NCBI GenBank assembly: GCA_012962155.1
Contig: DTXZ01000058.1
Span: forward strand, 1 to 47,650
Length of the DNA: 47,650 nucleotides
Source of the DNA: Aquificales bacterium
Lineage (GTDB): Bacteria; Aquificota; Aquificia; Aquificales; QOAS01
Direction of reading: 5' to 3'
Part shown: piece after piece, positions 2,424 through 19,393 of the stretch
How the letters are laid out: every line of letters begins with the position of its first letter
Position numbering within the stretch: position 1 is the first letter of the stretch
Position numbers and translations under genes: made by a program
Notes under the pieces: model-generated
The model's input: the letters and a program-made list of their open reading frames with translations, nothing else
The model's database searches: none
Told to the model about the DNA's origin: nothing

Positions 2424-3093
2424 TTTAAGCTTTATAGCCTGTGCACCTCCCCCTAGACAGCTTCCCCCTCCACAAAAGGATAAAGTTTTAAAGGAATACG
2501 AAAAAACGGTAACTACTCCAAATTCTTATAAATTAAATGAAGCCGAAATAACGGTAACAAGAGCTAACTCCCTTTACAACCCCTACTTTAACCTATACGG
2601 CGATGTTAAGGCTTACCGAAAAGGGGACATCGTTTATATAGTGGTTTACGAGAGTATAGATGCCGTCCAAAAATTGGCCACCCAAACGGGACAACAACAC
2701 CAAGTTAATAATGCGGTCGCCTCCTTCTTCGGTGTGCACCCTAAAACCCTTCAGAATTTAGGTGTTTATTGGCAGTATCAATCGGGTTCTAAATACGGGG
2801 GTTCAACCCAGCAGAGAGGAGTTTTATCAACCCGTTTAGCCGCTTATGTAAAGAAGGTATACCCAAATGGCAATTTACTAATAGAGGCTTCCCGCTATAT
2901 CTATCTAAACGAGGCGGGACACAGGATTGTTTTAAGGGGTATAGTTCGTCCCGAGGATATAGGTCCCGATAACTCGGTTCCCTCCTCAAGGATAGCCAAT
3001 TTGGAAATTATTTACGACGGTAAAGGGTATATGGTTGACGCTTCTTCCCCCGGTTGGTTCACCCGTTTTTTGGCAAAAATTTGGCCTTTTTAA
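2392..3093 (+). CDS. flgH: flagellar L-ring lipoprotein FlgH
   Basis: Lipoprotein signal with lipobox (LSFIAC). It also has GDIVYIVV, LAAYVKKVYPNGNLLIEASR, RGIVRPEDIGPDNSVPSSRIANLEI, and the C-terminal GWFTRFLAKIWPF typical of FlgH. Confidence 0.88.
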   Translation: MKIRLLLSFISLSFIACAPPPRQLPPPQKDKVLKEYEKTVTTPNSYKLNEAEITVTRANSLYNPYFNLYGDVKAYRKGDIVYIVVYESIDAVQKLATQTGQQHQVNNAVASFFGVHPKTLQNLGVYWQYQSGSKYGGSTQQRGVLSTRLAAYVKKVYPNGNLLIEASRYIYLNEAGHRIVLRGIVRPEDIGPDNSVPSSRIANLEIIYDGKGYMVDASSPGWFTRFLAKIWPF

Positions 3094-3144
3094 TTTATAA
3101 ATTTATAAAAGGTAGTGTATTTTTTTTTATAAAAGCTTTATAAA
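3094..3144. promoter_or_regulatory. four copies of the 8-nt palindrome TTTATAAA upstream of the inositol-phosphate synthase gene
   Basis: TTTATAAA occurs at 3094-3101, 3102-3109, 3126-3133 and 3137-3144. The first two copies together form a perfect 16-nt palindrome. They lie 63-113 nt upstream of the ATG at 3207. Confidence 0.35.
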
Positions 3145-3206
3145 GTTCTCTATCTATATAAAAATTTTTTGCCAATACAATAGAACTCCACTCTGGAGGT
3201 TACGGA

Positions 3207-4394: not shown

Positions 4395-4494
4395 AGAAGA
4401 GTTCCGTCTCAAAGATGCGAGGTTTCCTCCGCCCCTACTTTCGCCTCTTTTACCCGTTATACGGGATTTTAAAAGAAGATAGTTTTTTCATATA

Positions 4495-4524
4495 GTTGAC
4501 CTAAAATATCGAGAAATAGTTATA
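4495..4524 (+). promoter_or_regulatory. candidate sigma70-type promoter for the ech operon
   Basis: TTGACC (4495-4500), an 18-nt spacer, then TTATAT (4519-4524). It sits in an AT-rich stretch about 80 nt upstream of echA. This is a hexamer match only. Confidence 0.3.
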
Positions 4525-4601
4525 TACTAATTAGCGAATTTTTAACATTCGGATATATCATATCAACGGAGATTTCTAAAAGTCCCCATCGGAGGTAGCC
4601 T

Positions 4602-6455
4602 ATGATAGCCGCGGAAATTCTTGCGTCTATTTTACTACCTTGGATTTCGGCGTTGGTAATTTATGTATTAAACAACCACAGGGTGTCGGTTTTCCTCACG
4701 GTGTTAAATTTCGTAATTCTAACCATTATAGGGTTACACCTATGGTTTAGCGTGAATAATCCAATAACCTTGCACCCCCCTCACCTTGTAGATTGGTTAC
4801 TATTGGTTTATGACTACGGCCTACTACTTTATTTCTTCAAACAGGGTATAGAAAACCGAAACCCCCTAGTATCGGTTCTAGCGGTTATTCAGATTTTCTT
4901 GCTCTCGTGGGTGGTACTTATAAGACCCCATTCGGAAGTTCCCAATATTTACATTGACAAACTCACGGTGTTTATGTATTTAATCGTAGGCTTCGTAGGT
5001 TCGCTAATTACCCTTTTCGCCACGAGGTATATGCAAGATGAAAATCCAGTAAGGGAAGGAGAATTCGTAGCTATATTGGTTTGGTTTCTCGGAGTTATGA
5101 ATTTCATAGTGAGTGTGAATAACATTGAATGGTTTTTCGCACTCTTTGAAACTACCACTTTGGCATCTTATCTTCTCATCCGTTTTAGAGGAGATACGGT
5201 TTCCGTAAATAACGCCCTTTTAGCCCTTTGGATGAACCAAATAGGTGGTATTACCATTTTGCTTGCTCTACTATTTGCTATTCACAAATACGGAATTACC
5301 CACTTCTCCCAATTCGGGGAACATACCCAATTGGCTCTCTTTCCATTAGCATTTTTAAGCGCGGCCGCCTTGGTAAAGGGTGCCCAAATGCCTTTCCACC
5401 GTTGGTTGTTGGGAGCAATGGTTGCCCCCACACCGGTTAGCGCTATTTTACACTCCGCAACAATGGTTAAGGTTGCCCCCTATTTAATTCTCCGTCTCTC
5501 TCCCTTTATAAAAGGGACCCTGTTGGCAAAGCTTATAGTCGTATTTACCGGTTTTGTCTTCGTGGTAACCGCACTCTTAGCCCTAAACGAAACCCACTTT
5601 AAAAGAATACTCGCTTATTCCACCATCTCTCTACTTTCCCTAATGATGTTGGCGGGTACCATCGGCACCCCCATCACAATTACCGTTGCCCTAATGCTTA
5701 TAGCTTTCCACGCCGTTGCCAAGGCACTGCTCTTTTTGGAAGCGGGAGTTTTGGAAAAGAGATATCACGCGAAAACTATTTACGACCTCAAGCACATTAT
5801 CAACAAAGCTCCTCTAACAGTTTTCTTCATATTGGTAGGTTTCCTTAGCATGACTATGGTTCCCTTTGCAATGTTTGTAGCCAAATGGTTAATGATTTCC
5901 GAAATGTCGGAGTTGTTAAGCAAGGCTTCCTATATTATCACCGTTGCAATCTTGGCTATAGGTGGTGCTATCTTGACCGTTCTTTATCTAAAAATTCTCG
6001 GTCTAACAATTAACCGCGACGAGGAAAGCTTTAGGGTAAAAATAGAGAAACTGCCGAGTCTATATACCATTCCCAATGTTATTTATGTAGTTCTTATACT
6101 GATAGCAACGCTATTTATTAACACATTCTTGGTATACTTCTTTGCTCCCATAACCCAATCAATAATTGGTTACATACCCCCCTTCTGCGAAGGTTTAAGC
6201 GTATGTATAAAGAACTTACAACTACCCTTCTGGCAGATAATCATAGCATTCTTCTTTGTGGTATTTTTCCCGATAATAGCCCATTACATCCACTTCAAAA
6301 CGGATAGAACCGCTGAATATTCTTGTGGAGAGCCTGTAAAACCCCGAATTAGCACTTATAACATGGTCTGTTTAAACAAAGTTAGTACCTACTTTGAAAG
6401 TATATCCCTAGCCCTTTTTGTCCTTGTTTTGGTTATCGGGGGAGGAATGCTTTAA
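4602..6455 (+). CDS. echA: Ech-type hydrogenase membrane subunit A (NuoL/Mrp antiporter-like)
   Basis: 617-aa polytopic membrane ORF. KGAQMPFHRWLLGAMVAPTPVSAILHSATMVKVAPYL is the NuoL/M/N-MrpA/D signature. It is the first gene of a six-gene cluster in echABCDEF order. GGAGGT lies 7 nt upstream. Confidence 0.85.
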   Translation: MIAAEILASILLPWISALVIYVLNNHRVSVFLTVLNFVILTIIGLHLWFSVNNPITLHPPHLVDWLLLVYDYGLLLYFFKQGIENRNPLVSVLAVIQIFLLSWVVLIRPHSEVPNIYIDKLTVFMYLIVGFVGSLITLFATRYMQDENPVREGEFVAILVWFLGVMNFIVSVNNIEWFFALFETTTLASYLLIRFRGDTVSVNNALLALWMNQIGGITILLALLFAIHKYGITHFSQFGEHTQLALFPLAFLSAAALVKGAQMPFHRWLLGAMVAPTPVSAILHSATMVKVAPYLILRLSPFIKGTLLAKLIVVFTGFVFVVTALLALNETHFKRILAYSTISLLSLMMLAGTIGTPITITVALMLIAFHAVAKALLFLEAGVLEKRYHAKTIYDLKHIINKAPLTVFFILVGFLSMTMVPFAMFVAKWLMISEMSELLSKASYIITVAILAIGGAILTVLYLKILGLTINRDEESFRVKIEKLPSLYTIPNVIYVVLILIATLFINTFLVYFFAPITQSIIGYIPPFCEGLSVCIKNLQLPFWQIIIAFFFVVFFPIIAHYIHFKTDRTAEYSCGEPVKPRISTYNMVCLNKVSTYFESISLALFVLVLVIGGGML

Positions 6456-6470
6456 AAGGAGGGTAGAACA

Positions 6471-7307
6471 ATGAAGGGTATCCTTTTCACCTTCGCTTTA
6501 CTATCCCCTATTATCGGGGGATTGATTTACGGATTGGAGAGGAAGTTCAAAGCCCGCATGCAAAATCGACAGGGACCTCCTATTCTTCAACCTTTTTATG
6601 ACTTTTTCAAGTTGACGGACAAAAGAGCCTTACAGGTGCATTCCTTTCATAGCTTAATGGGAATAGCATTCTTTGTAGCCGCATGGTTTGCCGTATTTGC
6701 CCTCCTTATTGGACCTAATATCCTTATTGCGATATTTCTCCACGTATTGGCATTGCTATTCTTTACAGCCGGTGGATTTAGCGTTAAGTCTCCCTATAGC
6801 GTAATGGGTGCGTTGAGAGAACTTGCCCATATATTAGCCGCCGAACCTATATTGGTTTTTGCGGCTATAGCCCTCTATCTATCAACGGGTTCTTGGAATA
6901 TTGAAGGGATTTTAACTTCCAATACAGTACCTATCCTCCAGATGCCTTTGCTATTCTGTGCTTTAGTTCTTACGGTTCCTATATTGTTGAAACGTTCCCC
7001 CTTTGATATATCGGAAGCCCACCAGGAAATTATTGGCGGGGCAGAAATAGAATACAGCGGGCTTTTTTATGAAGCGGTTTATACCGCCAAGTGGCTGGAA
7101 TATATTTTCATAGGGGTAATAGTGTTCCTTTTTGGAGGCTCCAACTATTTATTAGGAGCGCTATTGGTAGCTGCAACCTTCTTATTCGTTTGGCTACTGG
7201 ATAACGCCACAACCCGTTTGACTATTCACTACATGATGAAGTTTGCATGGGGAATTCTACTTCCTTTGGCGGCGTTTAACATCTTTTGGGTTGCTATTTG
7301 GAGGTAA
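6471..7307 (+). CDS. echB: Ech-type hydrogenase membrane subunit B (NuoH/HycD-like)
   Basis: 278 aa. It has ERKFKARMQNRQGPP near the N-terminus and RSPFDISEAHQEIIGGAEIEYSG, both hallmark NuoH/HycD/EchB motifs. Confidence 0.88.
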   Translation: MKGILFTFALLSPIIGGLIYGLERKFKARMQNRQGPPILQPFYDFFKLTDKRALQVHSFHSLMGIAFFVAAWFAVFALLIGPNILIAIFLHVLALLFFTAGGFSVKSPYSVMGALRELAHILAAEPILVFAAIALYLSTGSWNIEGILTSNTVPILQMPLLFCALVLTVPILLKRSPFDISEAHQEIIGGAEIEYSGLFYEAVYTAKWLEYIFIGVIVFLFGGSNYLLGALLVAATFLFVWLLDNATTRLTIHYMMKFAWGILLPLAAFNIFWVAIWR

Positions 7308-7312
7308 GGGCA

Positions 7313-7870
7313 ATGTTCGGATTTTTTAAAAAGTTTAGAAAGAAGTCTCCTTGGATACTTCACTATAACACCGGTAGTTGTAACGGGTGCGATATAGAGA
7401 TAATGGCCTGCTTAGGTCCCAAATACGACTTGGAAAGATTTGGAATTATTAATAAAGGAAACCCCAAACAGGCGGACATTCTCCTAGTTACAGGCCCGGT
7501 TACTAAAAGGGCGAGAGCCCGCCTTCTCCGTCTCTATATGCAGATGCCCGAACCCAAGGTGGTAGTTGCGGTAGGAGCCTGTGCCTGCACCGGTGGAGTT
7601 TTCAGACATATGTACAATGTCGAAAATGGAATAGATAGATTTATTCCCGTAGATGTTTATATTCCCGGATGTGCAGCCCGACCCGAAAATATCATTGAAG
7701 GGATAAAAAAAGCAATAGAAATTTGGGAAAGGAAACAAAAAGAGAAAGTGGAAGTCCCCAAGGTTCTTAAAGAGATTCCCGATGTTGAAACCTTAGACCG
7801 TAGGGAGATTATAAGCAAGTTGGAGGAAAAATACTCCGAGAGATTAGTCATTGAGGAGGATGAGAAATGA
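7313..7870 (+). CDS. echC: Ech-type hydrogenase small subunit (NuoB-like, one [4Fe-4S])
   Basis: Start taken at ATG 7313, after GGAGGTAAGGG. The cluster Cys residues lie in GSCNGCDIE, GACACTGG and IPGCAARPE. A roughly 50-aa charged C-terminal tail lies beyond the conserved core. Confidence 0.88.
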   Translation: MFGFFKKFRKKSPWILHYNTGSCNGCDIEIMACLGPKYDLERFGIINKGNPKQADILLVTGPVTKRARARLLRLYMQMPEPKVVVAVGACACTGGVFRHMYNVENGIDRFIPVDVYIPGCAARPENIIEGIKKAIEIWERKQKEKVEVPKVLKEIPDVETLDRREIISKLEEKYSERLVIEEDEK

Positions 7871-8226
7871 AAAATTTTGAAGAGATACAAGTTTCCCTTT
7901 CCGAACTTAGGGAGGCTATAAAGAGGTTCTACAAACCCGAAGAGTGGCACTTTATAACCATAAATGGAACCGATGTAGGGGACGGGATAGAGATAAAGTA
8001 TTTCTTCGCCGCTTACGGGAAAAGTAAAAAGGTAAAGGCTTTTTCCCTAAAAATAGACTACAACCAAACTATTCCTTCTATTAGAGACATAATACCCTCC
8101 GCCTGGATAGCGGAAGAGGAACTAAAAGACCTATTAGGGGTGAATGTAGAGGGAACAAAGGGGGGTATATTCCTAGAGCCCGACTCTCCCCAAGCCCCTT
8201 TGAGGAAGGAGGTGAAAAATGGGTAA
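7867..8226 (+). CDS. echD: Ech-type hydrogenase subunit D (short NuoC-like)
   Basis: 119 aa. The start overlaps the echC stop (ATGA). The position and size match EchD/MbhK-type NuoC homologues. The ...AEEELKDLLGVNVEG... block resembles the NuoC ERE..D..G core. Confidence 0.75.
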   Translation: MKNFEEIQVSLSELREAIKRFYKPEEWHFITINGTDVGDGIEIKYFFAAYGKSKKVKAFSLKIDYNQTIPSIRDIIPSAWIAEEELKDLLGVNVEGTKGGIFLEPDSPQAPLRKEVKNG

Positions 8227-9304
8227 AAAATTTGTCGTCCCCTTTGGTAGTCAACATATAGCTATCCCCGAACCTATAAGGTTTATATTCACCACGGAGA
8301 ACGAGATAATTAAAAGTGTCTCGGTTGATTTTGGATATGTTCACAGGGGTATTGAAAAGGCCTGTATGACCCGCTATAAATACACCCAAGTTCCCTATGT
8401 GGTAGCCCGTGTATGCGGATTATGTGCCGTATCCCAAGCCACTGCATACTGTATGGCAATAGAATCCCTTATGGATATAGAAATTCCCGAGAGGGCTAAG
8501 TATCTGCGAATTATCGTCCACGAAATGGATAGAATTCACTCCCATCTTTTTGCCATTGCCCACCTAAGCGAAGCGGCGGGATACGAAAACCTTTTCATGA
8601 GGGTGATGAGAGATAGGGAATTCGTTATGGAGTGTCTAGAAATCCTAACCGGAAATAGAATTCAAGCCGACTATAGCACAATAGGAGGGGTAAACCGAGA
8701 CCTTACAAAGGAGGTTTACGAAATCTTAAAACCGCGTTTGGATGAACTTGAAAGAAGACTTTACGAACTTAAAGAGATTTTTGAAAGAGATTATACCCTC
8801 CAAAAGAAGTGGAAGGGAATTGGGGTTATTACACTTGAAATGGCCCAAAAATATAATGCAGTGGGACCCGTAGCGAGGGCCTCGGGACTGGCGACCGACT
8901 GTAGGGTTGAATTTGAATACCTTCCCTATAAGGAGTTGGATTATAAAATGGTTCTCTACCAAGAGGGAGATGTATGGGCTAGGAACATGGTCCGTCTGGA
9001 TGAAACTTTGGTCTCTATAAGGGTGCTAAAAAATGCCATAGACAATCTCCCCGAAGGGGATATAAAAGTAAAAGTAAAAGGCAATCCTAAAGGTGAAGCC
9101 CTTATAAGGTGGGAAGCACCAAGGGGAGAACTTCTTTATTACGTAAAAGGTAACGGAAAATCGGTACTGGAAAGGTTGAGAATTAAAACCCCAACCTTTA
9201 GCGTTATACCGGTCATGAAAGAGCTTTATTACAACCAACCTTACGCTTTTGTTCCCGATATAACTATTAGCTTTGATCCCTGCCTATCTTGCAGCGCCCG
9301 TTAG
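8219..9304 (+). CDS. echE: group-4 [NiFe]-hydrogenase large subunit (NuoD-like, EchE type)
   Basis: 361 aa. Both NiFe ligand pairs are present: RVCGLC near the N-terminus and DPCLSCSAR at the extreme C-terminus. GYVHRGIEK block present. AGGAGGTG lies upstream of the ATG. Confidence 0.92.
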   Translation: MGKKFVVPFGSQHIAIPEPIRFIFTTENEIIKSVSVDFGYVHRGIEKACMTRYKYTQVPYVVARVCGLCAVSQATAYCMAIESLMDIEIPERAKYLRIIVHEMDRIHSHLFAIAHLSEAAGYENLFMRVMRDREFVMECLEILTGNRIQADYSTIGGVNRDLTKEVYEILKPRLDELERRLYELKEIFERDYTLQKKWKGIGVITLEMAQKYNAVGPVARASGLATDCRVEFEYLPYKELDYKMVLYQEGDVWARNMVRLDETLVSIRVLKNAIDNLPEGDIKVKVKGNPKGEALIRWEAPRGELLYYVKGNGKSVLERLRIKTPTFSVIPVMKELYYNQPYAFVPDITISFDPCLSCSAR

Positions 9305-9315
9305 GAGGAAAGAAG

Positions 9316-9726
9316 ATGTTTAAAATGTTTCTTTTTTCTTTAAAAAATCTCTTTTCCAAACCGGCAACTTTACCGGAAGGAACGGAAAAACCTAAGCAAT
9401 ATAGGGGCCTTATTAAGTATTACGAGGAAACCTGTATCTATTGCAAAAAGTGTGAAATGGTGTGCCCTCCCGGAGCTATCATCTTTACCTATCCCGAAGA
9501 CGGTTCCAAGAGATTGATATTCCACTATAACCCTTATTTATGTATTTATTGCGGAGAGTGTGTGAGGGCTTGCCCCAAACCGGGAACTCTGGTTCAAGTG
9601 GAAGATACCGCCCCCCCCGCCACCGCCCAAGATAAACCTAACGATCTTTGGTTTGAAGTTGAAAAGGAAGCCGTTGAAAGTAAAAAAATCTGGCAAGAAG
9701 CCCGCCGTAAGAAACGTAACAAATGA
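9316..9726 (+). CDS. echF: Ech-type hydrogenase 2x[4Fe-4S] ferredoxin subunit (NuoI-like)
   Basis: Start at ATG 9316, after AGGAGG (9303-9308). It has two CxxCxxCxxxCP motifs (CIYCKKCEMVCP, CIYCGECVRACP) and a basic C-terminal tail. Confidence 0.88.
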   Translation: MFKMFLFSLKNLFSKPATLPEGTEKPKQYRGLIKYYEETCIYCKKCEMVCPPGAIIFTYPEDGSKRLIFHYNPYLCIYCGECVRACPKPGTLVQVEDTAPPATAQDKPNDLWFEVEKEAVESKKIWQEARRKKRNK

Positions 9727-9935
9727 ACTTCTCCCAATTGCGGAGCTTGGAACGGTTTCACCCCACTTTTTTTTAAAAATTTTTTCTTTTCCCGTTCTTT
9801 ACTATAAGAAAGAAACCCGACAAAAGTCATAGTGTAAGCTTTTACTTTCCAAAAAAACACTTATTAAAAGTTTTATTGCGTTTTGAAATATAGCAATATA
9901 AGAAAATTAGCGATTTCTTTTTCGGAGGTTAGGCC

Positions 9936-10277
9936 ATGCTAGCGGCTTTTATAACTTTTGTGGTTGCCCTTCTGGCTACGGCTGTACTCTTTTGGGTGAT
10001 AGCTTTGCTATATGCACCAAAAGGGGAATCGGTAGCCAAACACGTTCCCTACGAATGCGCTGTTCCTCCCGAAGGGCCCCTACCAAAGAAATCCAACTTC
10101 AGATACTACTTTTTCGGAATTCTGTTCCTAGTTATGGATATGGTTGGAATGTTTATCGCTTTGGAAGCGATAACTAATGGACAGGCTATCTGGATTTATT
10201 TACTTTTTGTAATACCGCTTCTCCTCGCTATCTGGCACATTATAGGAGGTAAAAAATATGTTGACCAAGTTTCTTGA
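9936..10277 (+). CDS. nuoA: NADH-quinone oxidoreductase-like complex, subunit A
   Basis: 113 aa with three hydrophobic segments. It has the PYEC motif of NuoA. GGAGGT lies upstream. It is the first gene of the nuoABCDHIJKLMN array. Confidence 0.85.
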   Translation: MLAAFITFVVALLATAVLFWVIALLYAPKGESVAKHVPYECAVPPEGPLPKKSNFRYYFFGILFLVMDMVGMFIALEAITNGQAIWIYLLFVIPLLLAIWHIIGGKKYVDQVS

Positions 10278-10788
10278 CTTTTTCGGTTGGGCTAGGGCTA
10301 ACAGCCCCTGGATGGTCCACTACTGTTCCGGATGTTGTTCATTAGAGATATTGGCGCTTATGGGTCCCAGATTTGACTGGGAACGTTACGGTTTTATGCC
10401 GGTTCCCTCCCCCCGTCAGGCTGACTTTATAGTTATTACAGGATTGATATCAAGAAAGGTTCTCCCCGTACTTTTAATGACCTACGACCAGATGCCCAAA
10501 CCTAGATACGTATTCGCCATAGGTTCCTGTGCATTTGATGGTGGACCCTATTACGACTCCACTTCGGTTGTTACCAACGTTCCCGAAATATTGCCTCCCG
10601 ATGTATTCGTAGCCGGATGCCCTCCAACCCCCGAAGCCATACTGGAAGGCCTTCTTGAAATGAAGAAGATTATTAGGGAAAAGAGGGAAGCCCGTGCAGA
10701 AAGGGAGGGAACTTGGAAAGAAATTCTCAAACAGGAATTGGAAAAGAATCCTTTACTGTCGCAACAACCTTTCTTTGTCGGAGGATAA
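10258..10788 (+). CDS. nuoB: complex I-like subunit B (N2 [4Fe-4S] carrier)
   Basis: 176 aa. It has SGCCSLE (tandem Cys typical of NuoB), GSCAFDGGPY and VAGCPPTPE. Confidence 0.9.
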   Translation: MLTKFLDFFGWARANSPWMVHYCSGCCSLEILALMGPRFDWERYGFMPVPSPRQADFIVITGLISRKVLPVLLMTYDQMPKPRYVFAIGSCAFDGGPYYDSTSVVTNVPEILPPDVFVAGCPPTPEAILEGLLEMKKIIREKREARAEREGTWKEILKQELEKNPLLSQQPFFVGG

Positions 10789-10852
10789 AACTTGTTATCC
10801 GTAATGGTTTCTCTTTACCTTTCTTCTCAATTTTTCCCGCAGGAGGGGTTTT

Positions 10853-11317
10853 ATGGGTTTTGAAAATTTTGTAAAGTTAATGAAAAGTTACTTTGGGGTG
10901 GAAGCGGAAGAATACCCCCAAAACCACACGGCTAAAACCTATCTCTTTAAGATAAAACCGGAGTATATTAGGGAAGTTGCAAAACTTTTAAAGGAAAATG
11001 GATTTGACTTTTTCCATACATTGGCTCCGGTGGATTACTCGCCCAAGGGTAGGGGATTGGAACTTAATTACTTTTTTGAGAATGTGGAAGAAAGGATTTG
11101 GATTCTTATTAAAACCGAAATTCCTTTAGACAATCCCGAAATAGATTCCCTACACGATATTTATCCCTCCTTAGAAGCCTGCGAAAGGGAAGAGTGGGAA
11201 AAATTTGGTATTTTCTTCAAAGGACATCCCAGACTAAAGCCGCTGCTATTGGACGATACCCTACAAGGTAGATGGGTTCTGAGGAAATCTTACATTCCCG
11301 AACCCCATAGGAAATAA
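10853..11317 (+). CDS. nuoC: complex I-like subunit C
   Basis: 154 aa. CEREEWEKFGIFFKGHPRLKPLLL matches the NuoC ERE..D..G..F.GHP signature. Confidence 0.88.
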   Translation: MGFENFVKLMKSYFGVEAEEYPQNHTAKTYLFKIKPEYIREVAKLLKENGFDFFHTLAPVDYSPKGRGLELNYFFENVEERIWILIKTEIPLDNPEIDSLHDIYPSLEACEREEWEKFGIFFKGHPRLKPLLLDDTLQGRWVLRKSYIPEPHRK

Positions 11318-11332
11318 AACGGAGGTTTTGCT

Positions 11333-12460
11333 ATGTATAAAGGGGCACAAATAATAACCGAACCGATAGGTAAAGAAGGCGACTTAATGGTTTTAAACTG
11401 GGGTGTGCAACACCCCGCATCGGGGCCTATGAGGATTAAAGTCTGGCTTGACGGGGAAACCATAGTAAAGGTTGAAAACGACCCCGGATACGTAACCCGT
11501 AACATGGAAAAAATGTTGGAATACCGAACTTGGGAAAATGCGGTGGTTAATGTTGAAAGGATTTGTTTCATAGACGACTTGGGAACTATCTTAAATTGGG
11601 CTTTAGCGATAGAAAAACTGGCCGAAGTGGAAGTTCCCAAAAACGTGGAATATTTCAGGGTAATACTGGCGGAAGTAGGAAGAATAGTTTCCCACCTCAT
11701 AGGTGTGGGAGGAATGTTTGGAGCCTTAGGAGTTGCTACACCAATGATGTGGGTTCTCTCTCTCAGGGAGTTTTATCTAGACTTTTTGGAACACTACTCG
11801 GGTTACCGAATATCAACTGCCGCCATAGTTCCCGGTGGAGTTAGATTTGAACCCACAAAAGAGGACATGGAATTACTTAAAAAGGCTATAAAGGAAACCG
11901 AAAAAAGATGGCCCGAATACAAAGAGGTATTTAAAGATAACCCCACATTGGTTGAAAGGTACAAGGGTGTGGGAATTATACCCAAAGAGCTGGTTTACAA
12001 ATTGGGTCTAAGGGGGCCCGTTGCAAGGGCTTCGGGAGTGGCTTACGATTACAGAAAAACCTACCCTTATAGCTCCTACGAGGATTTTAACTTCAATGTA
12101 GTCGTAAAGGAAGAGGGAGATGCCTACGCCCGGTTTTTGGTAGTCCTTGAGGAAATAGAGGAATCGGTAAAGATTATCAAACAGGCAATGGAAGGAATGC
12201 CCGAAGGGGACAAATGGAAGGTCAGGGTACCCAAAAAGATAAAAGCGGGCGAAACCTTTTCCGCGGTAGAATGGGCTAGGGGAGGTATAGAGTATTTCGT
12301 AGTAAGCGATGGGGGAACGGAACCTTACAGGGTTAAAATTTCTGCCCCCTCGTTCATGAACATTTGGGCTCTGGAATACATTGCTCCCGGTCACAAGTTG
12401 GCGGACTTGGCGACAATATTTGCAAGCCTTTACATCTGCCACGGAGATTTGGACAGATAA
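11333..12460 (+). CDS. nuoD: complex I-like subunit D, atypical (no canonical quinone ligands; two residual hydrogenase-position Cys)
   Basis: 375 aa. It has NuoD/NiFe-large-subunit fold blocks (GVQHPASGPMRI, GYVTRNMEK, GLRGPVARASGVAYDYRK, RVKISAPSF, terminal GDLDR). It has RICFID where hydrogenases have RxCGxC and canonical NuoD has R.DY.. . The C-terminus is SLYICHGDLDR. Confidence 0.88.
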   Translation: MYKGAQIITEPIGKEGDLMVLNWGVQHPASGPMRIKVWLDGETIVKVENDPGYVTRNMEKMLEYRTWENAVVNVERICFIDDLGTILNWALAIEKLAEVEVPKNVEYFRVILAEVGRIVSHLIGVGGMFGALGVATPMMWVLSLREFYLDFLEHYSGYRISTAAIVPGGVRFEPTKEDMELLKKAIKETEKRWPEYKEVFKDNPTLVERYKGVGIIPKELVYKLGLRGPVARASGVAYDYRKTYPYSSYEDFNFNVVVKEEGDAYARFLVVLEEIEESVKIIKQAMEGMPEGDKWKVRVPKKIKAGETFSAVEWARGGIEYFVVSDGGTEPYRVKISAPSFMNIWALEYIAPGHKLADLATIFASLYICHGDLDR

Positions 12461-12473
12461 GGAGGGGTTAAAA

Positions 12474-13421
12474 ATGGATTGGGGGTGGATACTTTTTAAA
12501 ACCCTGGTTTTTCCGGGATTAACTTTCCTACTGCTGGTCATATTTGCAACCTTTTACCTTGAAAGGAAACTGGTTGCCGATATGCACGGTAGAACTGGTC
12601 CTTACTACGTTGGTCCCTATGGACTTTTGCAAACGGTGGCGGATATATTTAAAATCCTCCAAAAAGAGGTAATAATTCACAGGGAAGCGGATAAGCTCCT
12701 ATTTTTGGTAGTTCCCGCCGTTGCCTTCTTTATGGTGGCATTGGTAGCAGCCTTTATCCCTTATTCGGAAACTCTCTGGATAGTTTCCACTCCTTACGAC
12801 TTGGTTATTTCCTTGGCACTACTTACGTCTCTACCGGCTATATTCCTTTTTGCGGGATGGGTTTCCAAGAGTAAATATCCCTTCATAGGAGGTATTAGAG
12901 TTATAAACCAGCTAATTTCCGGTGAAATTCCTTTGTGGTTGGCGGGTCTTTCGGTAGCCCTTTGGTATGGAACTTTCAATTACGTTGAAATAGTTCAAAA
13001 ATTTGACCTTATAGGTTTTCTCGTTAATTTGGTGGGTTTCGTAATATTTCTGGTGGCAATTCTCATAGTTGCGGACAGACCTCCCTTTGACATACCCGAA
13101 GCGGAACAGGAAATTGTTTACGGTTTCCTTACCGAGTATACGGGAGTCGGTTACCTACTTTTAGCTGGTGCTAAATTCTTGGAAATTTTCGTATTGGCGG
13201 CAATGACCGTAACCCTCTTTTTAGGTGGATTTAAAGGACCTTTCCTCCCCGGTTGGGTATGGTTCTTAATAAAGATATTTACGGTATATTACTTGGCTTT
13301 TGCGATAAGAGCTTCCACCCCACGTATTAGGCTGGACCAACTCATCAAATTTACTTGGAACATACTGGTTCCGTTGGCACTACTGAACATTGTTTTCATA
13401 CTGGTTATAAAAGCGTTGTAA
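12474..13421 (+). CDS. nuoH: complex I-like subunit H
   Basis: Start at ATG 12474, after GGAGGGG. It has ERKLVADMHGRTGPYYVGPYGLLQTVADIFK and RPPFDIPEAEQEIVYGFLTEYTG. Confidence 0.9.
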   Translation: MDWGWILFKTLVFPGLTFLLLVIFATFYLERKLVADMHGRTGPYYVGPYGLLQTVADIFKILQKEVIIHREADKLLFLVVPAVAFFMVALVAAFIPYSETLWIVSTPYDLVISLALLTSLPAIFLFAGWVSKSKYPFIGGIRVINQLISGEIPLWLAGLSVALWYGTFNYVEIVQKFDLIGFLVNLVGFVIFLVAILIVADRPPFDIPEAEQEIVYGFLTEYTGVGYLLLAGAKFLEIFVLAAMTVTLFLGGFKGPFLPGWVWFLIKIFTVYYLAFAIRASTPRIRLDQLIKFTWNILVPLALLNIVFILVIKAL

Positions 13422-13434
13422 GGAGGTAAGGATT

Positions 13435-13887
13435 ATGCTAAATAAAATTTTGGAAAAAATAGTTTTAGTAGCATCCAGGGCGACCAAACCCAAAGATACT
13501 ACATACTTTCACGAAAGTAGACCGAAGAAACCGGCAAGGTTTAGGGGAAAACATTTCATCAATGCCGAAACTTGCATAGGTTGTTACGCCTGCGAAAGGG
13601 CTTGCCCCATAGGGGCTATTATTATGGTTCCCACCGGACTTAAAAGACCCAGGGCTATGCCTACGGTGAATTTAGGAAGGTGTTGCTATTGCGGTCTCTG
13701 CGAAGATGCCTGCCCTACCAAGGAGAAATCTATATATCTAACGGAGAAATACGAGATGATAGTGGAAGAGGTTGAACTTACCCCTCTAATAGACGATCTG
13801 TGGGCTAAACCGGTAGGAGATATTACCAAAAACCCACTTGTGATTAAGGACTTACAAAAACAAAAGCAACAGAAGGAGGGTAAATAA
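13435..13887 (+). CDS. nuoI: complex I-like subunit I (2x[4Fe-4S])
   Basis: 150 aa. It has RFRGKH followed by CIGCYACERACP and CCYCGLCEDACP. Confidence 0.9.
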   Translation: MLNKILEKIVLVASRATKPKDTTYFHESRPKKPARFRGKHFINAETCIGCYACERACPIGAIIMVPTGLKRPRAMPTVNLGRCCYCGLCEDACPTKEKSIYLTEKYEMIVEEVELTPLIDDLWAKPVGDITKNPLVIKDLQKQKQQKEGK

Positions 13888-14363
13888 TGTTCCTTTACTT
13901 TACCATTCTCTTTTTAATAGTTATTGCAACCGCAATAGCGGCTATAGAACTAACCAACTTTATATGGGTTTTGGTGGCCTTCGCCACGCTACTAACGGAA
14001 ATAGCCCTGTTTTATTTTTCCTTAGGTTTTCCTCTATTGGGGGCCTTTCAGCTGGCGGTTTACGCGGGTGGAGTTGCAATTCTGGTGCTATTTACAATTC
14101 TCACTATAGGCGAAAGGGAAGAGGAAAAAAAGGAAAGCAAATTGGCCGCAGGGGTAGCGATTGCTATATTTATCACCGGTGTAATAGCCTCTATATGGAC
14201 CGGACTTAATACCAAACCTTATTTGAATATAAGCCTTCAGGAACTCGGTAACGTGTTTATTGAAAAATACGCTTTATTGGTGATTCCATTGGGTTTTACC
14301 GCGGTGGGGATTATTTTCGGTGCTTACTACCTACTTTCCAAAAAACTACAAGGGGAGGAATAG
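13887..14363 (+). CDS. nuoJ: complex I-like subunit J
   Basis: 158-aa hydrophobic ORF. Its position and size fit NuoJ. FQLAVYAGGVAILVLF resembles the conserved NuoJ TM3 block. The start overlaps the nuoI stop (TAATG). Confidence 0.8.
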   Translation: MFLYFTILFLIVIATAIAAIELTNFIWVLVAFATLLTEIALFYFSLGFPLLGAFQLAVYAGGVAILVLFTILTIGEREEEKKESKLAAGVAIAIFITGVIASIWTGLNTKPYLNISLQELGNVFIEKYALLVIPLGFTAVGIIFGAYYLLSKKLQGEE

Positions 14364-14364
14364 G

Positions 14365-14676
14365 ATGCAATTCACCCAAGAACCTATGCTCTGGTTTCTG
14401 CTTGTGGCGGTATCGCTATTGGCGATAGGGGTTTACGGACTGCTTTCCCGAAAGTCTATTTTAAAGATGATAATCTCCATAGAAATTATCGTAAACGGGG
14501 CAAATGTAGGATTGGCAGCCTTTGCCACCCAACACGGGGCGGACGGAGTTATTTTGGCTTTCTTCGCAATAGCGTTGGCGGCTCTTGAAGTAGCGGTAGG
14601 TTTGACCTTGCTAATAATCCTTGCCCGTAAATATAGTATCACCTTCCCCGAAAAAATAAACAACCTGAGGTGGTAA
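14365..14676 (+). CDS. nuoK: complex I-like subunit K
   Basis: Trimmed to ATG 14365 (103 aa). It has three TM segments with GLLSRKSILKMIISIEII.NG and AALEVAVGLTLLI typical of NuoK. Confidence 0.85.
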   Translation: MQFTQEPMLWFLLVAVSLLAIGVYGLLSRKSILKMIISIEIIVNGANVGLAAFATQHGADGVILAFFAIALAALEVAVGLTLLIILARKYSITFPEKINNLRW

Positions 14677-14678
14677 AG

Positions 14679-16511
14679 ATGGAGTGGCTAATTTACTTGT
14701 CGGTGTTGCTACCGATTTTTGGAGCACCAATCATTTGGTTTATAAGTCACTACACCAATAAATGGTTCTCTTGGTATTTATCTCTGGCGGTTACAGGTTT
14801 TTCCGCATTAGTAGCATTGTTAACCGCCCTGCAGGTGGCGGGGGGAGCTAAATTTGAACACTCCTTCACCTGGTTTAATTTCGGAGGGGTAGAGGTTCCC
14901 TTCGGAATTTACGTTGACGGAATGTCCACAGTAGTTTACGCAATGGCGGCACTCTTAGGGTTTCTTATAGTTATATACTCCCGCGGTTACATGGAACACG
15001 ACGAAAGTCCCCATAGGTTCTTCATGAAGGTTACCTTCTTCATAGGTTCTATGCTAGGACTCACCGTATCGGACAACCTAATAGGAATGTTTATCTTCTG
15101 GGAGTTTATGGGATTGGCTTCTTACCTACTTATCTCTTATTGGTATTACAAAAACAGTGCCGCCGATGCAGGTTTGAAAGCTTTCCTTATGACAAAATTT
15201 GCCGACGGATTCTTCTTGGCCGGAATAGTGCTTCTCTGGTGGTATAGCGGGAGCCTAAAAGTTGTCGAAATCAACCATCTTGCGGAAACAGCAGGAATAC
15301 CTTTATTTATAGCGGCCGTTTCCGCACTCTTAATGTTCGGAGGAGCCATAGGAAAATCGGCCCAATTCCCGCTGTTCCCGTGGCTACTAGACGCTATGGA
15401 AGGTCCCACACCCGTTTCCGCGTTAATTCACGCCGCAACAATGGTCAATGCGGGTGTTTTCTTGGTAGGTAGATTATTTGACTTTTACACTTATTCGGGA
15501 GTTCTATATGTGGTGCTTGCAATCGGTGCGATTTCCGCTTTCATAGCGGTTCTCGGAGCCATGGTTCACAGGGAAATTAAAAAGATAATCGCTTTTTCAA
15601 CAATGGAAAACCTTGGACTTATGTTCGTCGGATTGGGAGCCGGTTCTTTGGCCGCAGGTATTTTTCACCTAGTTTCCCATGCGACCTTTAAAGCACTAAT
15701 GTTCCTATCCGCAGGTAACGTTATCCACTTTACCCACGAAAAAGATGCCTTTAAAATCCGCGGACTTAGGAAATTTATGCCCTATACCGCAATACTATTT
15801 CTTATAGCTTTACTTTCCCTAGCGGGCATACCTCCCTTAAGCGGATTCTTCTCCAAAGAGTGGATTGTTCACGAAGCCAAGTTAAGCGGCGACCCCATAG
15901 CGTTTGCCTTTGTTTTAACCGCCGCAGTATTGACCATCTACTACGGTTTTAGATTGTGGTTCCAAATCTTTACTGGAGAACCCAACGAAATTGCAAAACG
16001 TGCAAAGGAAGCTTACCTCGTCATGCTAATACCTTTGGTAGTCTTGGCGGTTTTAACTTTCCTGGTAGGGATTTTCCATCAATCTATAGTTCACCTTATA
16101 GAACGGCATGCCCACATTCCCCACGATTGGGGGTTAACCATTTTGGTATTCTCCCTAATGGCGGTAGCCTTCGGCTTGGCTTGGCTTATTTACTACAAGA
16201 GGGCTATTGATACCGAAGAACTGATGAAAGACCCCATCGTATCTGCACTAAACAAAGTTTTCTACAACTCCTTTTTTGTAGACTTTCTCCTGCGTTGGCT
16301 ATCCAGAAACTTTGTGGTTGAATTCCTAGCCTTGCTCGCCCACTGGCTTGATAGAAACGTCTACGACTATATCGTTAATGGGGTTGCTAAAACCGCCCTG
16401 TGGACCTGGGAAAAGGTTAAAATTATACAAACCGGTAACCTAATTCATTACCTAACTATTTTTGTTAGTGGTGCAATAGTCCTTTACTACCTTTACCTCG
16501 TAATACTCTAA
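14679..16511 (+). CDS. nuoL: complex I-like subunit L (antiporter-like, with C-terminal lateral-helix region)
   Basis: ATG 14679 follows GAGGTGG (GTG 14670 is an alternative start). It has FWEFMGLASYLLISYWY and GKSAQFPLFPWLLDAMEGPTPVSALIHAATMVNAGVFL. Confidence 0.9.
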   Translation: MEWLIYLSVLLPIFGAPIIWFISHYTNKWFSWYLSLAVTGFSALVALLTALQVAGGAKFEHSFTWFNFGGVEVPFGIYVDGMSTVVYAMAALLGFLIVIYSRGYMEHDESPHRFFMKVTFFIGSMLGLTVSDNLIGMFIFWEFMGLASYLLISYWYYKNSAADAGLKAFLMTKFADGFFLAGIVLLWWYSGSLKVVEINHLAETAGIPLFIAAVSALLMFGGAIGKSAQFPLFPWLLDAMEGPTPVSALIHAATMVNAGVFLVGRLFDFYTYSGVLYVVLAIGAISAFIAVLGAMVHREIKKIIAFSTMENLGLMFVGLGAGSLAAGIFHLVSHATFKALMFLSAGNVIHFTHEKDAFKIRGLRKFMPYTAILFLIALLSLAGIPPLSGFFSKEWIVHEAKLSGDPIAFAFVLTAAVLTIYYGFRLWFQIFTGEPNEIAKRAKEAYLVMLIPLVVLAVLTFLVGIFHQSIVHLIERHAHIPHDWGLTILVFSLMAVAFGLAWLIYYKRAIDTEELMKDPIVSALNKVFYNSFFVDFLLRWLSRNFVVEFLALLAHWLDRNVYDYIVNGVAKTALWTWEKVKIIQTGNLIHYLTIFVSGAIVLYYLYLVIL

Positions 16512-16524
16512 AGGAGGATAGAAA

Positions 16525-17958
16525 ATGTTGCTGACCACAATAATACTTCCCGTTTTGCTCGCACCTTTTGCTTACTTCTTTGAAAGGCAAGCTAAATACC
16601 TCTCGCTCTTTGCGGGGATTTTTGTAACCTTCGTAGGTCTTTACCTATGGACTAACTATCCCGGACACGGATTTGCCTTTGAGGAATTTTACCCCATATT
16701 CCCCCAATGGGATTTCAACCTCCACCTCGGAGTGGATGCCCTATCCATAGCCTTAATAACTTTAACGGGAATCATAGCCATTCTTGTAACCCTTTCATCG
16801 TGGAATATAAATTGGCAGGGAGCCTACTTCTTCCTAATATTGATCTTCTTGGGTGCAATGGTAGGAGTCTTTGCCTCCCTAAACTACCTATGGTTCTTTA
16901 TATTCTGGGAATTCACCCTGGTACCGATGTTTTTCCATATAGGTATCTGGGGGGCGGAAAATAGAATTTATGCGGCTGTAAAATTCTTTCTATATACCCA
17001 CTTGGCGTCTATATTCCTCTTCCTAGCAATTTTGATAATTTTTATTAAAACCGGCCACTTTGACTTTCTTGCTATAAAGCAAGCCAATATTCCTCTGGAT
17101 TTACAAAAAGTTATTTGGGCGTTAGCCTTTATAGGTTACATCGTTAAAATGCCTGTAGTCCCCTTCCACACTTGGCTTCCCGATGCCCACGTTCAGGCCC
17201 CCTCTCCCATATCGGTAATCTTGGCGGGCTTACTTTTGAAAATGGGAGCTTATGGACTTCTCAGGTGGAACATAGAACTATTTCCCGAAGCGTCCAAACA
17301 TTTCATCTACCTTATGTTGGCAATAGGACTGCTTACCGTTTTCCACGCCGCCTTTAAAGCCCTTTACGAGGACCACGTCAAGAGAATGGTAGCCTACTCC
17401 TCTATAAACCACATGGGATTGGTTTTGGTAGCCTTGGCTACCTTAACATCGGTGGGTATAAGCGCGGCAATATACGAAATGGTGGCCCACGCCCTTATTA
17501 TCTCCCTAATGTTTATGGTTGCGGGTTATATACATCACATTACGGGAACTTGGTATATTTCCGAAATAGGCGGTGGATTTTTACGAAAGTTTCCCTTTAT
17601 AGGAACCCTTTATGTATTGGGTGCCCTTGGAGCATTGGGATTCCCCGGAACCGCCGGATTTATCGGTGAAGTTACCGCCATTTACGCCGCCTTTGACAAA
17701 TTTGGTTGGTTGGCCCTCTCGTTACCTTTCTCCGCTGTTCTCACCGCCGGGTTCTTCTTCTGGGCTATAAGAAGGATGCTTCACGGTGAGGAGAGCAAAA
17801 AGGTTTCCCAACTACATATCCATCCCCTTCCCACGGTGGAAAAGCTTCCTCTAGTGGTCTACGTTGCCCTATTTATATTCCTCGGTGTGGCTCCTTCCCT
17901 TCTATTCAACTTCATTAACGGTTACACCCAAACCTTAGGAAAGATTTTGGGAGGTTAA
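16525..17958 (+). CDS. nuoM: complex I-like subunit M
   Basis: 477 aa. It has VKMPVVPFHTWLPDAHVQAPSPISVILAGLLLKMGAYG. AGGAGG lies upstream. Confidence 0.9.
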   Translation: MLLTTIILPVLLAPFAYFFERQAKYLSLFAGIFVTFVGLYLWTNYPGHGFAFEEFYPIFPQWDFNLHLGVDALSIALITLTGIIAILVTLSSWNINWQGAYFFLILIFLGAMVGVFASLNYLWFFIFWEFTLVPMFFHIGIWGAENRIYAAVKFFLYTHLASIFLFLAILIIFIKTGHFDFLAIKQANIPLDLQKVIWALAFIGYIVKMPVVPFHTWLPDAHVQAPSPISVILAGLLLKMGAYGLLRWNIELFPEASKHFIYLMLAIGLLTVFHAAFKALYEDHVKRMVAYSSINHMGLVLVALATLTSVGISAAIYEMVAHALIISLMFMVAGYIHHITGTWYISEIGGGFLRKFPFIGTLYVLGALGALGFPGTAGFIGEVTAIYAAFDKFGWLALSLPFSAVLTAGFFFWAIRRMLHGEESKKVSQLHIHPLPTVEKLPLVVYVALFIFLGVAPSLLFNFINGYTQTLGKILGG

Positions 17959-17962
17959 AAGG

Positions 17963-19393
17963 ATGAACTGTATTATTTTCAGTGGAATAATAACTTTGGC
18001 TTTTGGCGGTCTTTTGGTTCCCATAGTTGGGAACCTTTTTAAACTTTCCCGCGAATGGATTTTAAACCTCTTCCTACTCGTTTTTTTAATCGCAGGTGGA
18101 TTATTCCTATACGGGTTTGGTCACGGGCATATTATCTACCCCAACCTGTTTACAACCGATACGGTAAGTCTCCTAATGACCATTTTCGTATGGTTTACCG
18201 GTGCGGTTGTTTTAATAACAATCTTCAATACCCTTAAGGAGATAAACAATTTAGCGGAAATCCTGGGTGTGTATGCAATTTCCCTTTCGGGAGCAATCTT
18301 AACCCTTTATGCAAATAACTTCGTATCCTTTTTGGTTGCAATGGAACTGATGACCATACCTTCCTATTATCTGATAATGGCAAGACTTAACACCATAACC
18401 ACCGAAGCGGCCACCAAATACTTTTTCAATGGTGCTCTATCCACGGGATTTTTCCTATTCGGTATATTAGTTTTTTACGCCATAACCGGAGACCTCCAAT
18501 TTTCCGCAATAAACAAAGCCTTCCAAGCGGAAGATTCTTTTGGAATTCTATTTTTCGTATTTGGATTTATAGCCATTTTGTCCGCCATAGGTTTCAAAAT
18601 GTCTTTTGCACCATACCACTTTTATGCACCCGATACTTACACCGGAGCTCCCGCATCGGTGGCCGCATATTTAGCGGGTATTACAAAAAGTGCAGTTGCC
18701 ATTCCCGTAATAAGACTATTCTTTGAAGCTTTAAGCTTCCAAAAAGAGGATTGGAGTATCCTTTTGGCACTCCTTGCGGTCGTTACTATGACCATAGGTA
18801 ACCTATTGGCGTTGGCACAACAAAGCGTTGCAAGGATTTTGGCCTACTCATCTATAGCCCACGCCGGGTATATCCTGGTAGGATTTGCAGCCGCCGTCTC
18901 CGGTTTGGCTATAACGGGTATCGTATATCAGGCGGTTGCTTACATTCTTATGAAGGCGGGGGCCTTCCTAATGGTTACACTGCTAATTTACTACTACGGT
19001 ATAAAAACCCGTGAGCAACTAAGGGGTTTCGGAAAGATTAACCCCTTTATGGCTTTAGTATTTACCATCTTGCTACTTTCCCTCGCGGGAGTGCCCCCCA
19101 CCGCGGGATTTATAGCCAAAGTTTATCTCTTCCAAGCGGCGGTTGATGCGGGAATGGCGTGGCTTGCCTTTATAGGACTTCTCAACTCCGCCTTTGCGGT
19201 AGCCTATTACCTTTGGATTATTAAAGAAATGTACCTGGAAGCACCCCAAAGGTTGGAAAAACCCAAAGATACCTCCTTCCTCGTTCCCACAATGGCTATA
19301 GGAATGTTGGCGTTTTTAACCATAGTATTCGGTATCTGGGTAACCCCCGTTGTAAAGGCCTCCCTTGCCTTTACCCAACTCTTTCCTTTCTAA
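17963..19393 (+). CDS. nuoN: complex I-like subunit N
   Basis: 476 aa. It has GFKMSFAPYHFYAPDTYTGAPASVAAYLAGITKSA and ILAYSSIAHAGYIL. It is the last gene of the array. Confidence 0.9.
   Translation: MNCIIFSGIITLAFGGLLVPIVGNLFKLSREWILNLFLLVFLIAGGLFLYGFGHGHIIYPNLFTTDTVSLLMTIFVWFTGAVVLITIFNTLKEINNLAEILGVYAISLSGAILTLYANNFVSFLVAMELMTIPSYYLIMARLNTITTEAATKYFFNGALSTGFFLFGILVFYAITGDLQFSAINKAFQAEDSFGILFFVFGFIAILSAIGFKMSFAPYHFYAPDTYTGAPASVAAYLAGITKSAVAIPVIRLFFEALSFQKEDWSILLALLAVVTMTIGNLLALAQQSVARILAYSSIAHAGYILVGFAAAVSGLAITGIVYQAVAYILMKAGAFLMVTLLIYYYGIKTREQLRGFGKINPFMALVFTILLLSLAGVPPTAGFIAKVYLFQAAVDAGMAWLAFIGLLNSAFAVAYYLWIIKEMYLEAPQRLEKPKDTSFLVPTMAIGMLAFLTIVFGIWVTPVVKASLAFTQLFPF

Follow-up and report, generated by a model that had tools for sequence, protein, structure and literature searches.

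An accessory Ech-type [NiFe]-hydrogenase cassette beside an operon for a complex I relative without NuoEFG in a member of the Aquificales

The DNA analysed here (the window) comprises positions 1 to 47,650 of contig DTXZ01000058.1 (C58) of an Aquificales bacterium from an uncultivated genus of deep-sea vents, whose genome (GenBank assembly GCA_012962155.1; designated G000) is a metagenome-assembled genome of 1.12 Mb in 93 contigs with an estimated completeness of 95.5%. Seventeen open reading frames (ORFs) on the + strand, at 4602-19393, make up two adjoining clusters, echABCDEF (4602-9726) and nuoABCDHIJKLMN (9936-19393), assigned respectively to an Ech-type [NiFe]-hydrogenase and to a relative of respiratory complex I. 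As argued below, these are best read as two neighbouring operons, each probably with its own promoter, whose adjacency is confined to one lineage. Gene families were assigned with Pfam and NCBIfam profiles, and the 17 co-oriented genes and the separation of 209 nt between the clusters agree with those given in an earlier note on this DNA. Inspection of Shine-Dalgarno (SD) and ATG positions showed an ATG start and a GGAGG-type ribosome-binding site for each of the 17 genes, and the gaps within the clusters range from -20 to +64 nt. Five starts (echC 7313, echF 9316, nuoH 12474, nuoK 14365 and nuoL 14679) were refined from the gene calls on identical public contigs together with the SD positions.

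A region of 207 nt (4395-4601) precedes the ech genes and is a candidate ech promoter/operator that carries a conserved element, ATAGTTATATAC-TAATTAGCGAATTTTTAACATTCGGATATATCAT. The first gene, echA (4602-6455), encodes the single antiporter-like membrane subunit of the NuoL/MrpA type (617 aa; Proton_antipo_M, 7.8e-40, and Proton_antipo_N), and echB (6471-7307) a NuoH-like membrane subunit (278 aa; NADHdh, 4.3e-44). These are followed by echC (7313-7870) for the NuoB-like hydrogenase small subunit (185 aa; Oxidored_q6, 1.6e-32), echD (7867-8226) for a NuoC-like protein (119 aa; Complex1_30kDa, 3.5e-12), echE (8219-9304) for the [NiFe] large subunit (361 aa; Complex1_49kDa and an N-terminal NiFeSe_Hases match) and echF (9316-9726) for a NuoI-like, ferredoxin-like subunit with two [4Fe-4S] clusters (136 aa; Pfam Fer4 families). 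In EchE, all four NiFe cysteines are kept, in L1 (RVCGLC, Cys66 and Cys69) and L2 (DPCLSC, Cys355 and Cys358), and the protein terminates at DPCLSCSAR with no C-terminal extension or maturation peptide. The proximal [4Fe-4S] ligands of EchC are present as CxxC...C...C (Cys23, 26, 90 and 120), and EchF has eight Cys in two CxxCxxCxxxCP motifs. The same six-gene cassette was seen in 10 other contexts, close EchE homologues carry the NCBI and JGI name 'ech hydrogenase subunit E', and the closest solved structures are those of MBH (221 bits) and FHL HycE (200 bits). As judged by the six-gene family set and the four cysteines, the first cluster is a true Ech hydrogenase, as the earlier note had proposed. 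It is classified as a six-subunit group-4 Ech-type energy-converting [NiFe]-hydrogenase, and turnover of H2, ferredoxin and ions would be expected from the family and from the proteomics of Desulfurobacterium thermolithotrophum.

One residue of the active site departs from the family. The L1 segment RVCGLCAVSQ (residues 66-75; 8414-8443) has Gln where the RxCGxCxxxH motif of group 4 Ech has its invariant His; His occupies this position in 118 of the 119 EchE homologues retrieved, including those of congeners at 82-88% identity, and Gln was found only in the window protein. Several hydrothermal-vent metagenomes contain the exact EchE protein, on at least 23 contigs in all, and its context is invariably flgH-MIPS-ech-nuo (MIPS, myo-inositol-1-phosphate synthase). 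Hence, the Gln represents a fixed allele rather than an error, and the locus belongs to a real, abundant population and is not an assembly chimera. The singular Gln, together with the repeated absence of ech from congeners, could mean that the Ech of this species is catalytically impaired or repurposed and that ech is heading for loss, as in the sister strains. However, all six ech genes are intact and have good SD sites, the allele is fixed in an abundant population, and Gln could, by its general chemistry, still donate a hydrogen bond. Both clusters are under purifying selection (omega ~0.02-0.1; ~0.03-0.1 for ech); with synonymous sites saturated (dS >1 or undefined), these values, calculated to test for decay of ech, support only strong purifying selection similar to that on nuo. 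Impairment is therefore improbable, and the replacement of His by Gln in L1 is probably a tolerated substitution.

An AT-rich spacer of 209 nt (9727-9935), a candidate nuo promoter region, separates echF from nuoA (9936-10277; 113 aa; Oxidored_q4). The remaining genes are nuoB (10258-10788; 176 aa; Oxidored_q6, and the NCBIfam NuoB subfamily above cut-off), nuoC (10853-11317; 154 aa, not fused to NuoD; Complex1_30kDa, 1.3e-25), nuoD (11333-12460; 375 aa), nuoH (12474-13421; 315 aa; NADHdh, 6e-87), nuoI (13435-13887; 150 aa, a plain protein with two [4Fe-4S] clusters and no fused flavoprotein domain), nuoJ (13887-14363; 158 aa; Oxidored_q3), nuoK (14365-14676; 103 aa; Oxidored_q2), nuoL (14679-16511; 610 aa; NCBIfam NDH_I_L, 476 bits, above cut-off), nuoM (16525-17958; 477 aa; NDH_I_M, 401 bits, above cut-off) and nuoN (17963-19393; 476 aa; NDH_I_N, 313 bits). 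The Pfam and NCBIfam assignments thus bear out the reading of this cluster as an 11-subunit complex I relative without NuoEFG. It has the eleven Q- and P-module subunits of canonical complex I and a NuoB with the tandem Cys typical of cluster N2 (C-x-x-C-C...C...C, with C26-C27, C91 and C121). The NuoB motif is a hybrid, combining a hydrogenase-like CxxC with a complex I-like CC.

NuoD has no NiFe site, as judged by alignment of motifs and residues. Only Cys78 (ERIC...) and Cys369 (...ICHGDLDR at the C-terminus) are left, which are the first Cys of each ancestral NiFe pair. As compared with Thermus Nqo4, whose numbering is used here, both canonical ligands of the quinone head group are missing: His38 is lost by a one-residue deletion (QHPAS-GP), and Tyr87 is replaced by Phe (ERICF). 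This pattern, the loss of His38 and Tyr87 with retention of two Cys, is shared across the genus, Desulfurobacterium and NuoCD of the Sulfurimonas/Caminibacter type, and the nearest relatives of NuoD are those of the Desulfurobacteriaceae, followed by NuoCD of the Nautiliales type. A complex that keeps remnants of the first and third Ni-Fe ligands but neither His38 nor Tyr87 has been described as the 'most ancestral' NUO11 in Desulfurobacterium, Thermovibrio and Nautiliales (Degli Esposti 2015, PMC4758237). By gene order and by these residues, nuoABCDHIJKLMN is an 'ancestral NUO11' complex I relative, and it is present throughout the genus.

The core modules B, C, D, H, I and L-like are each present twice, as stated previously, and the six paralogue pairs were aligned. 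Identities are 35% for EchE/NuoD, 36% for EchC/NuoB, 29% for both EchB/NuoH and EchA/NuoL, 38% over 84 aa for EchF/NuoI and 27% over 66 aa for EchD/NuoC. The doubling of all core modules in one orientation had suggested a snapshot of the transition from hydrogenase to complex I, or a recent duplication, and published trees do place Ech hydrogenases as the direct forerunners of complex I, with the Desulfurobacterium-type NUO11 as its most ancestral form (PMC4758237). In contrast to these low identities between paralogues, EchE shares 63% and NuoD 59% identity with its respective orthologue in D. thermolithotrophum. In the maximum-likelihood tree of EchE and NuoD, a branch of 1.13 substitutions/site with 100% support splits the two families, and the subtrees run parallel, with this genus followed by Desulfurobacteriaceae and then Campylobacterota. 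The parallel topologies and the long branch indicate that the two complexes have been inherited side by side for a long time. The gene orders also differ, since ech A-B-C-D-E-F corresponds to L-H-B-C-D-I, as against A-B-C-D-H-I-J-K-L-M-N in nuo, and the adjacency is limited to one genus. The snapshot reading is thus already contradicted by the phylogeny inferred from these proteins, and a recent duplication or transitional state is extremely improbable.

The distribution of the tandem was assessed in 178 Aquificota genomes, eight of which, including G000, belong to the genus. EchE orthologues were identified in 24 genomes (three of eight in the genus, two in the sister family and 19 in a Desulfurobacteriaceae-like family), and 21 of these 24 also encode a NuoD orthologue. 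Only in G000 and its congener G003 does ech adjoin nuo on one contig; a third instance of the tandem is on L025, a G003-like contig. The upstream neighbour varies, the arrangement being methyltransferase-flgGAH-MIPS, ech and nuo in G000; methyltransferase, ech and nuo in G003 and L025; methyltransferase and nuo in G004 and G007; and flgGAH and nuo in G002. The MIPS gene of the window (3207-4394) has flgH on one side and echA on the other; in G002, where MIPS and ech are missing together, nuoA follows flgH immediately. In L011, the methyltransferase gene and ech are followed by unrelated genes, and in G005, ech adjoins PRTase-dynamin-IMPDH genes with nuo on a separate contig. Cassettes with no adjoining nuo were found in L002, L011, L013-L017 and L026-L028 and in D. 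thermolithotrophum, where ech (~797 kb) and nuo (1.07 Mb) are ~275 kb apart; the distance is hundreds of kb in complete genomes. No tandem was seen among more distant Ech cassettes: those at 65-78% identity all stand alone, and the same is true of the ones sampled in Lebetimonas, a Bdellovibrionales genome and another long contig. The comparison of neighbourhoods that the earlier note had called for therefore shows a tandem that recurs in G003 and L025 but not in the other Ech-bearing genomes.

Comparison of closely related strains shows how the two clusters can be separated. In a tree of concatenated NuoC-K, G004 groups with G003 and L025 with 99% support at ~1% divergence, and no EchE was found anywhere in G004 by the genome scan. 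The spacer between the methyltransferase gene and nuoA in G004 consists of the left flank of the methyltransferase-echA spacer of L025 and the right flank of its echF-nuoA spacer (L005 1088-1174 for G004, as compared with L025 728-862 and 5984-6093 for G003/L025). As the flanks join exactly in this near-identical strain without ech, the ~5.3-kb ech cassette, including its own upstream region, is a clean presence/absence polymorphism. No long direct repeat, mobile-element signature or mobile-element gene was found at the boundaries, only T-run/CCAT microhomology. The ech segment was also considered as a compositionally anomalous region, and this was discarded because its GC content (0.41-0.42, against 0.43-0.445 in nuo) is not distinctive. 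With nuo lacking ech in five of the eight congeners and ech present in three, ech is an accessory cassette. A functional meaning of the physical tandem, as put forward previously, finds no support in these data, given that the two clusters adjoin in two of 24 Ech-bearing Aquificota, that ech is a clean indel, that nuoA has its own upstream element and that the operons of D. thermolithotrophum lie far apart. The adjacency of the two operons is specific to the lineage, is dispensable and has no demonstrated functional meaning, and the system is neither fused nor transitional.

The upstream element of nuoA, ATAGCAATATAAG (9890-9902), is located ~35 nt before the ATG. It is present upstream of nuoA in all six genus genomes compared (the window, L001, L003, L004, L005 and L006), and is kept whether the upstream gene is echF, flgH, the methyltransferase gene or another, and is probably the promoter or operator of the nuo operon. 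The element upstream of echA is a different one, and its core AATTAGCGAA(T/A)TTTTAACA..GATATATCAT is found also in L011, the EchE of which is an 85% relative, and L025 has the close variant GCAATTAACCGATTTTTAACATTCGGATATATCAT. This element is probably the ech promoter/operator. In the extended form ...ATATA..AATTAGCGAATTTTTAACA..C.GATATATCAT, it lies at 4516-4560 in the window, at ~4300-4345 in L011 and at ~770-825 in L025. It has an imperfect dyad symmetry, ATATA(T)C ... GATATAT, and is a candidate regulator site.

The alternative to two separate operons is a functional super-locus, in which ech and nuo would be co-transcribed or co-regulated and electrons would pass from H2 through Ech, ferredoxin and NUO11 to quinone, as a more strongly ion-pumping alternative to a group-1 uptake hydrogenase. 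The single strand and short gap, with no convincing terminator, would favour this arrangement, as would the retention of the tandem in G000, G003 and L025 despite saturated synonymous divergence, and the co-occurrence of Ech with the same NuoD type in 21 of 24 Ech-bearing genomes. The 209-nt gap was examined for an intrinsic terminator and for structured RNA, and both were rejected, as the fold z-score was -0.2 relative to shuffled sequences, a scan with the consensus gave hits at background level and no Rfam family matched. Similar short motifs, ATAGNNATATA and AATTAGCGA, precede both echA and nuoA in the window and were considered as evidence of co-regulation. However, though ATAGNNATATA occurs three times in the window against 0.33 expected, it has 23 occurrences in the genome, mostly within genes, and the 9-mer AATTAGCGA before nuoA is not conserved in G003 or other congeners; a shared regulatory motif was therefore rejected. 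Further evidence against a joint unit is that nuo lacks ech in five of eight congeners, including a near-identical strain, and that the element before nuoA is conserved in every context. In D. thermolithotrophum, where the operons are distant, EchABCDEF increased 8-15-fold at 2 uM H2, while under low H2 most Nuo11 subunits were undetected, NuoC and NuoI were seen but unquantified, and the separately encoded NuoEFG decreased (PMC12724263). A functional super-locus is thus unlikely.

No NuoE, NuoF or NuoG gene lies between nuoD and nuoH. A NuoF family (PF01512) match was absent from the 95.5%-complete genome of the window and from all eight genus genomes (NuoF being the family searched for, with no separate search for NuoE or NuoG), but was found in all six Desulfurobacteriaceae-like and sister-family genomes and in nine control genomes. 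The statement that the cluster is devoid of NuoEFG was hence upheld and extended, by way of NuoF, to the whole genome and the whole genus. Given the absence of NuoF from the genus, NUO11 cannot use a NuoEFG module here. Rnf (PF03116) was likewise found in none of nine genomes, which included the genus. All genus genomes encode two POR_N-type 2-oxoacid:ferredoxin oxidoreductases (POR/OGOR-type) as well as a group-1-like [NiFe] large subunit of full length. In the genome of the window, the group-1 hydrogenase is encoded on contig C72 with a small subunit bearing a TAT signal, a cytochrome-b subunit and HypD. Of the hyp genes that the earlier note had proposed to look for, HypD was the one sought, and it lies next to this uptake hydrogenase. 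The group-1 hydrogenase with cytochrome b, the POR_N enzymes and HypD imply that the cell oxidises H2 into the quinone pool, needs reduced ferredoxin and can mature NiFe sites. Ferredoxin, proposed previously as electron donor and hub, is the most reasonable partner in view of the two 2-oxoacid:ferredoxin oxidoreductases and because neither NuoF nor Rnf was found. That both complexes have a role centred on ferredoxin is a reasonable interpretation and the best supported one, and has been published before for the sister family.

Two other observations were made in these genomes. G003 (C109, ~4900-6050) and G005 (C57, ~18190-19340) each encode a further [NiFe] large subunit, which at ~410-430 aa is group-3-like in size and which the genome of the window lacks. 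On C72 (1-2883, - strand), a uvrA-like gene appears to be split into an ORF for a 243-aa N-terminal part and one of 688 aa that continues past the end of the contig, possibly due to a frameshift or assembly error.

Altered residues in NuoD bear on the acceptor of NUO11, which could be a sulfane (polysulfide), in a ferredoxin-dependent reductase like MBS (Mbx), or another non-quinone compound, on a complex I membrane arm. Only the acceptor is at issue here, and the reading agrees with two separate, ferredoxin-linked operons. The loss of His38 and Tyr87 fits such a role, as does the position of the two Cys of NuoD, which is exactly that in Pyrococcus furiosus MbsL (6U8Y chain L), with an equally long beta1-beta2 loop. 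The pattern is also kept in Desulfurobacterium and in NuoCD of the Caminibacter/Sulfurimonas type, which are known sulfur-reducing lineages, and retention of an Mbx-like function in ancestral NUO11 has been suggested (PMC4758237). On the other hand, the best match of NuoD in the Protein Data Bank (PDB) is Thermus Nqo4, at 254 bits as compared with 206 bits for MbsL and 190-200 bits for NdhH chains. The membrane arm is of the Nuo type (A, H, J, K, L, M and N) and not the Mrp type, NuoB carries the tandem-Cys N2 motif, and the cytochrome-b-linked uptake hydrogenase implies a quinone pool. A non-quinone acceptor is the less likely choice.

The locus is best explained as two neighbouring, separately promoted operons, an accessory Ech cassette and a genus-wide ancestral NUO11, both linked to ferredoxin and adjacent without demonstrated meaning; a probability of about 0.72 is given to this explanation. 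Several observations weigh against it. The gap without a convincing terminator leaves room for read-through from ech into nuo, and G000 and G003, which both have the tandem, are not sisters on the nuo tree, the deep nodes of which have 30-79% support. On this basis, the ech-nuo junction could date back to the ancestor of the genus and have been kept for a long time, while being lost or moved elsewhere more than once, and some selective advantage is conceivable. For NUO11, both the acceptor and the direction in which electrons flow are inferred, NuoD being devoid of the canonical quinone ligands, and full hydrogenase activity of Ech is an assumption in view of the unusual Gln.

With two separate operons, both Ech and NUO11 would exchange electrons with the ferredoxin pool, spending or gaining membrane potential. 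Ech would use the ion gradient to transfer electrons from H2 to ferredoxin for the reductive tricarboxylic acid (TCA) cycle, and would matter mainly under scarce H2, as the D. thermolithotrophum proteome suggests. NUO11 would link ferredoxin reversibly to a membrane acceptor, which may be menaquinone or possibly a sulfane compound, and in sister strains without ech, it would be the sole connection in the membrane from the quinone pool to that of ferredoxin and back. More tentatively, as the genus has neither NuoEFG nor Rnf, NUO11 might be a constitutive ferredoxin-coupled ion pump with a non-canonical acceptor (sulfane/polysulfide or differently bound menaquinone) at an MbsL-like NuoD site. 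The ech genes would then be an optional H2-to-ferredoxin booster, a 5.3-kb cassette at a promoter-proximal site of nuo that is gained and lost according to local H2 supply. If this were so, the near-isogenic vent populations with and without ech (G003/L025 and G004) would be a natural experiment on what feeds and drains an ancestral complex I.

Ech hydrogenases and 11-subunit complex I relatives are central to ideas on the origin of complex I and on low-potential ferredoxin in H2-based autotrophs. Both enzyme types have already been described, as Group 4 Ech and 'ancestral NUO11', and the locus brings no new enzyme type. The most useful novelty is that NuoF, like Rnf, is missing throughout a genus that has an 'ancestral NUO11', when the closest cultured relatives keep nuoGFE elsewhere, and this sharpens the question of the natural electron partner and acceptor of NUO11. 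Natural strain pairs with and without ech are available for ecological or metatranscriptomic comparison, and the adjacency of ech and nuo should not be over-read.

Cyanobacterial and chloroplast NDH-1 and archaeal Fpo likewise have eleven core subunits without NuoEFG and are ferredoxin- or F420-linked, which makes ferredoxin a likely partner here by analogy. NDH-1 has the ferredoxin-docking subunits NdhS, NdhV and NdhO, and Fpo has FpoF and FpoO. In contrast, the nuo operon of the window encodes none of these, and NuoD is only distantly related to NdhH (190-200 bits). Tyr87 is retained in NdhH and FpoD (PMC4758237). MBS of P. furiosus (formerly Mbx; PDB 6U8Y) resembles the nuo operon of the window in the two Cys positions and short beta1-beta2 loop that MbsL shares with NuoD, the two proteins aligning end to end at 206 bits. 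However, MBS has an Mrp-type membrane arm and another gene order, whereas the operon studied here is a canonical Nuo11 and not an MBS.

The closest counterparts of both clusters are those of the Desulfurobacteriaceae. The 'ancestral NUO11' operon of Desulfurobacterium, Thermovibrio and Nautiliales has the same nuoABCDHIJKLMN order, vestigial NuoD Cys without His38 or Tyr87, and the tandem Cys of NuoB. The Desulfurobacteriaceae differ in keeping nuoGFE in a separate operon, as is the case in D. thermolithotrophum (PMC12724263), which has the nearest cultured orthologue of this nuo operon, when NuoF is found in 0/8 genomes of the window genus. The Ech of D. thermolithotrophum HR11 and Thermovibrio ammonificans is encoded by six genes that match those of the window in kind and order and closely in size, and the EchE of D. 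thermolithotrophum is 63% identical. Like that of the window, their EchE has the four NiFe Cys and ends at DPCxxCxxR with no maturation peptide. For both organisms, reduction of ferredoxin for the reductive TCA cycle has been proposed as the role of Ech. Their EchE differs in having His in L1 where the window EchE has Gln. The setting is also different, as ech in these two organisms lies beside hydBCDA, encoding a group 3b hydrogenase, and reductive TCA cycle genes, and in the window between the MIPS gene and nuoA. In D. thermolithotrophum (L009), a four-gene cytoplasmic group-3b-type hydrogenase (2388-6315) immediately precedes ech, and malate dehydrogenase and fumarase genes follow it. For T. 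ammonificans, which has an 11-gene nuo cluster without EFG, the group 4 Ech has been proposed as the ferredoxin reducer for the reductive TCA cycle (PMC5441870).

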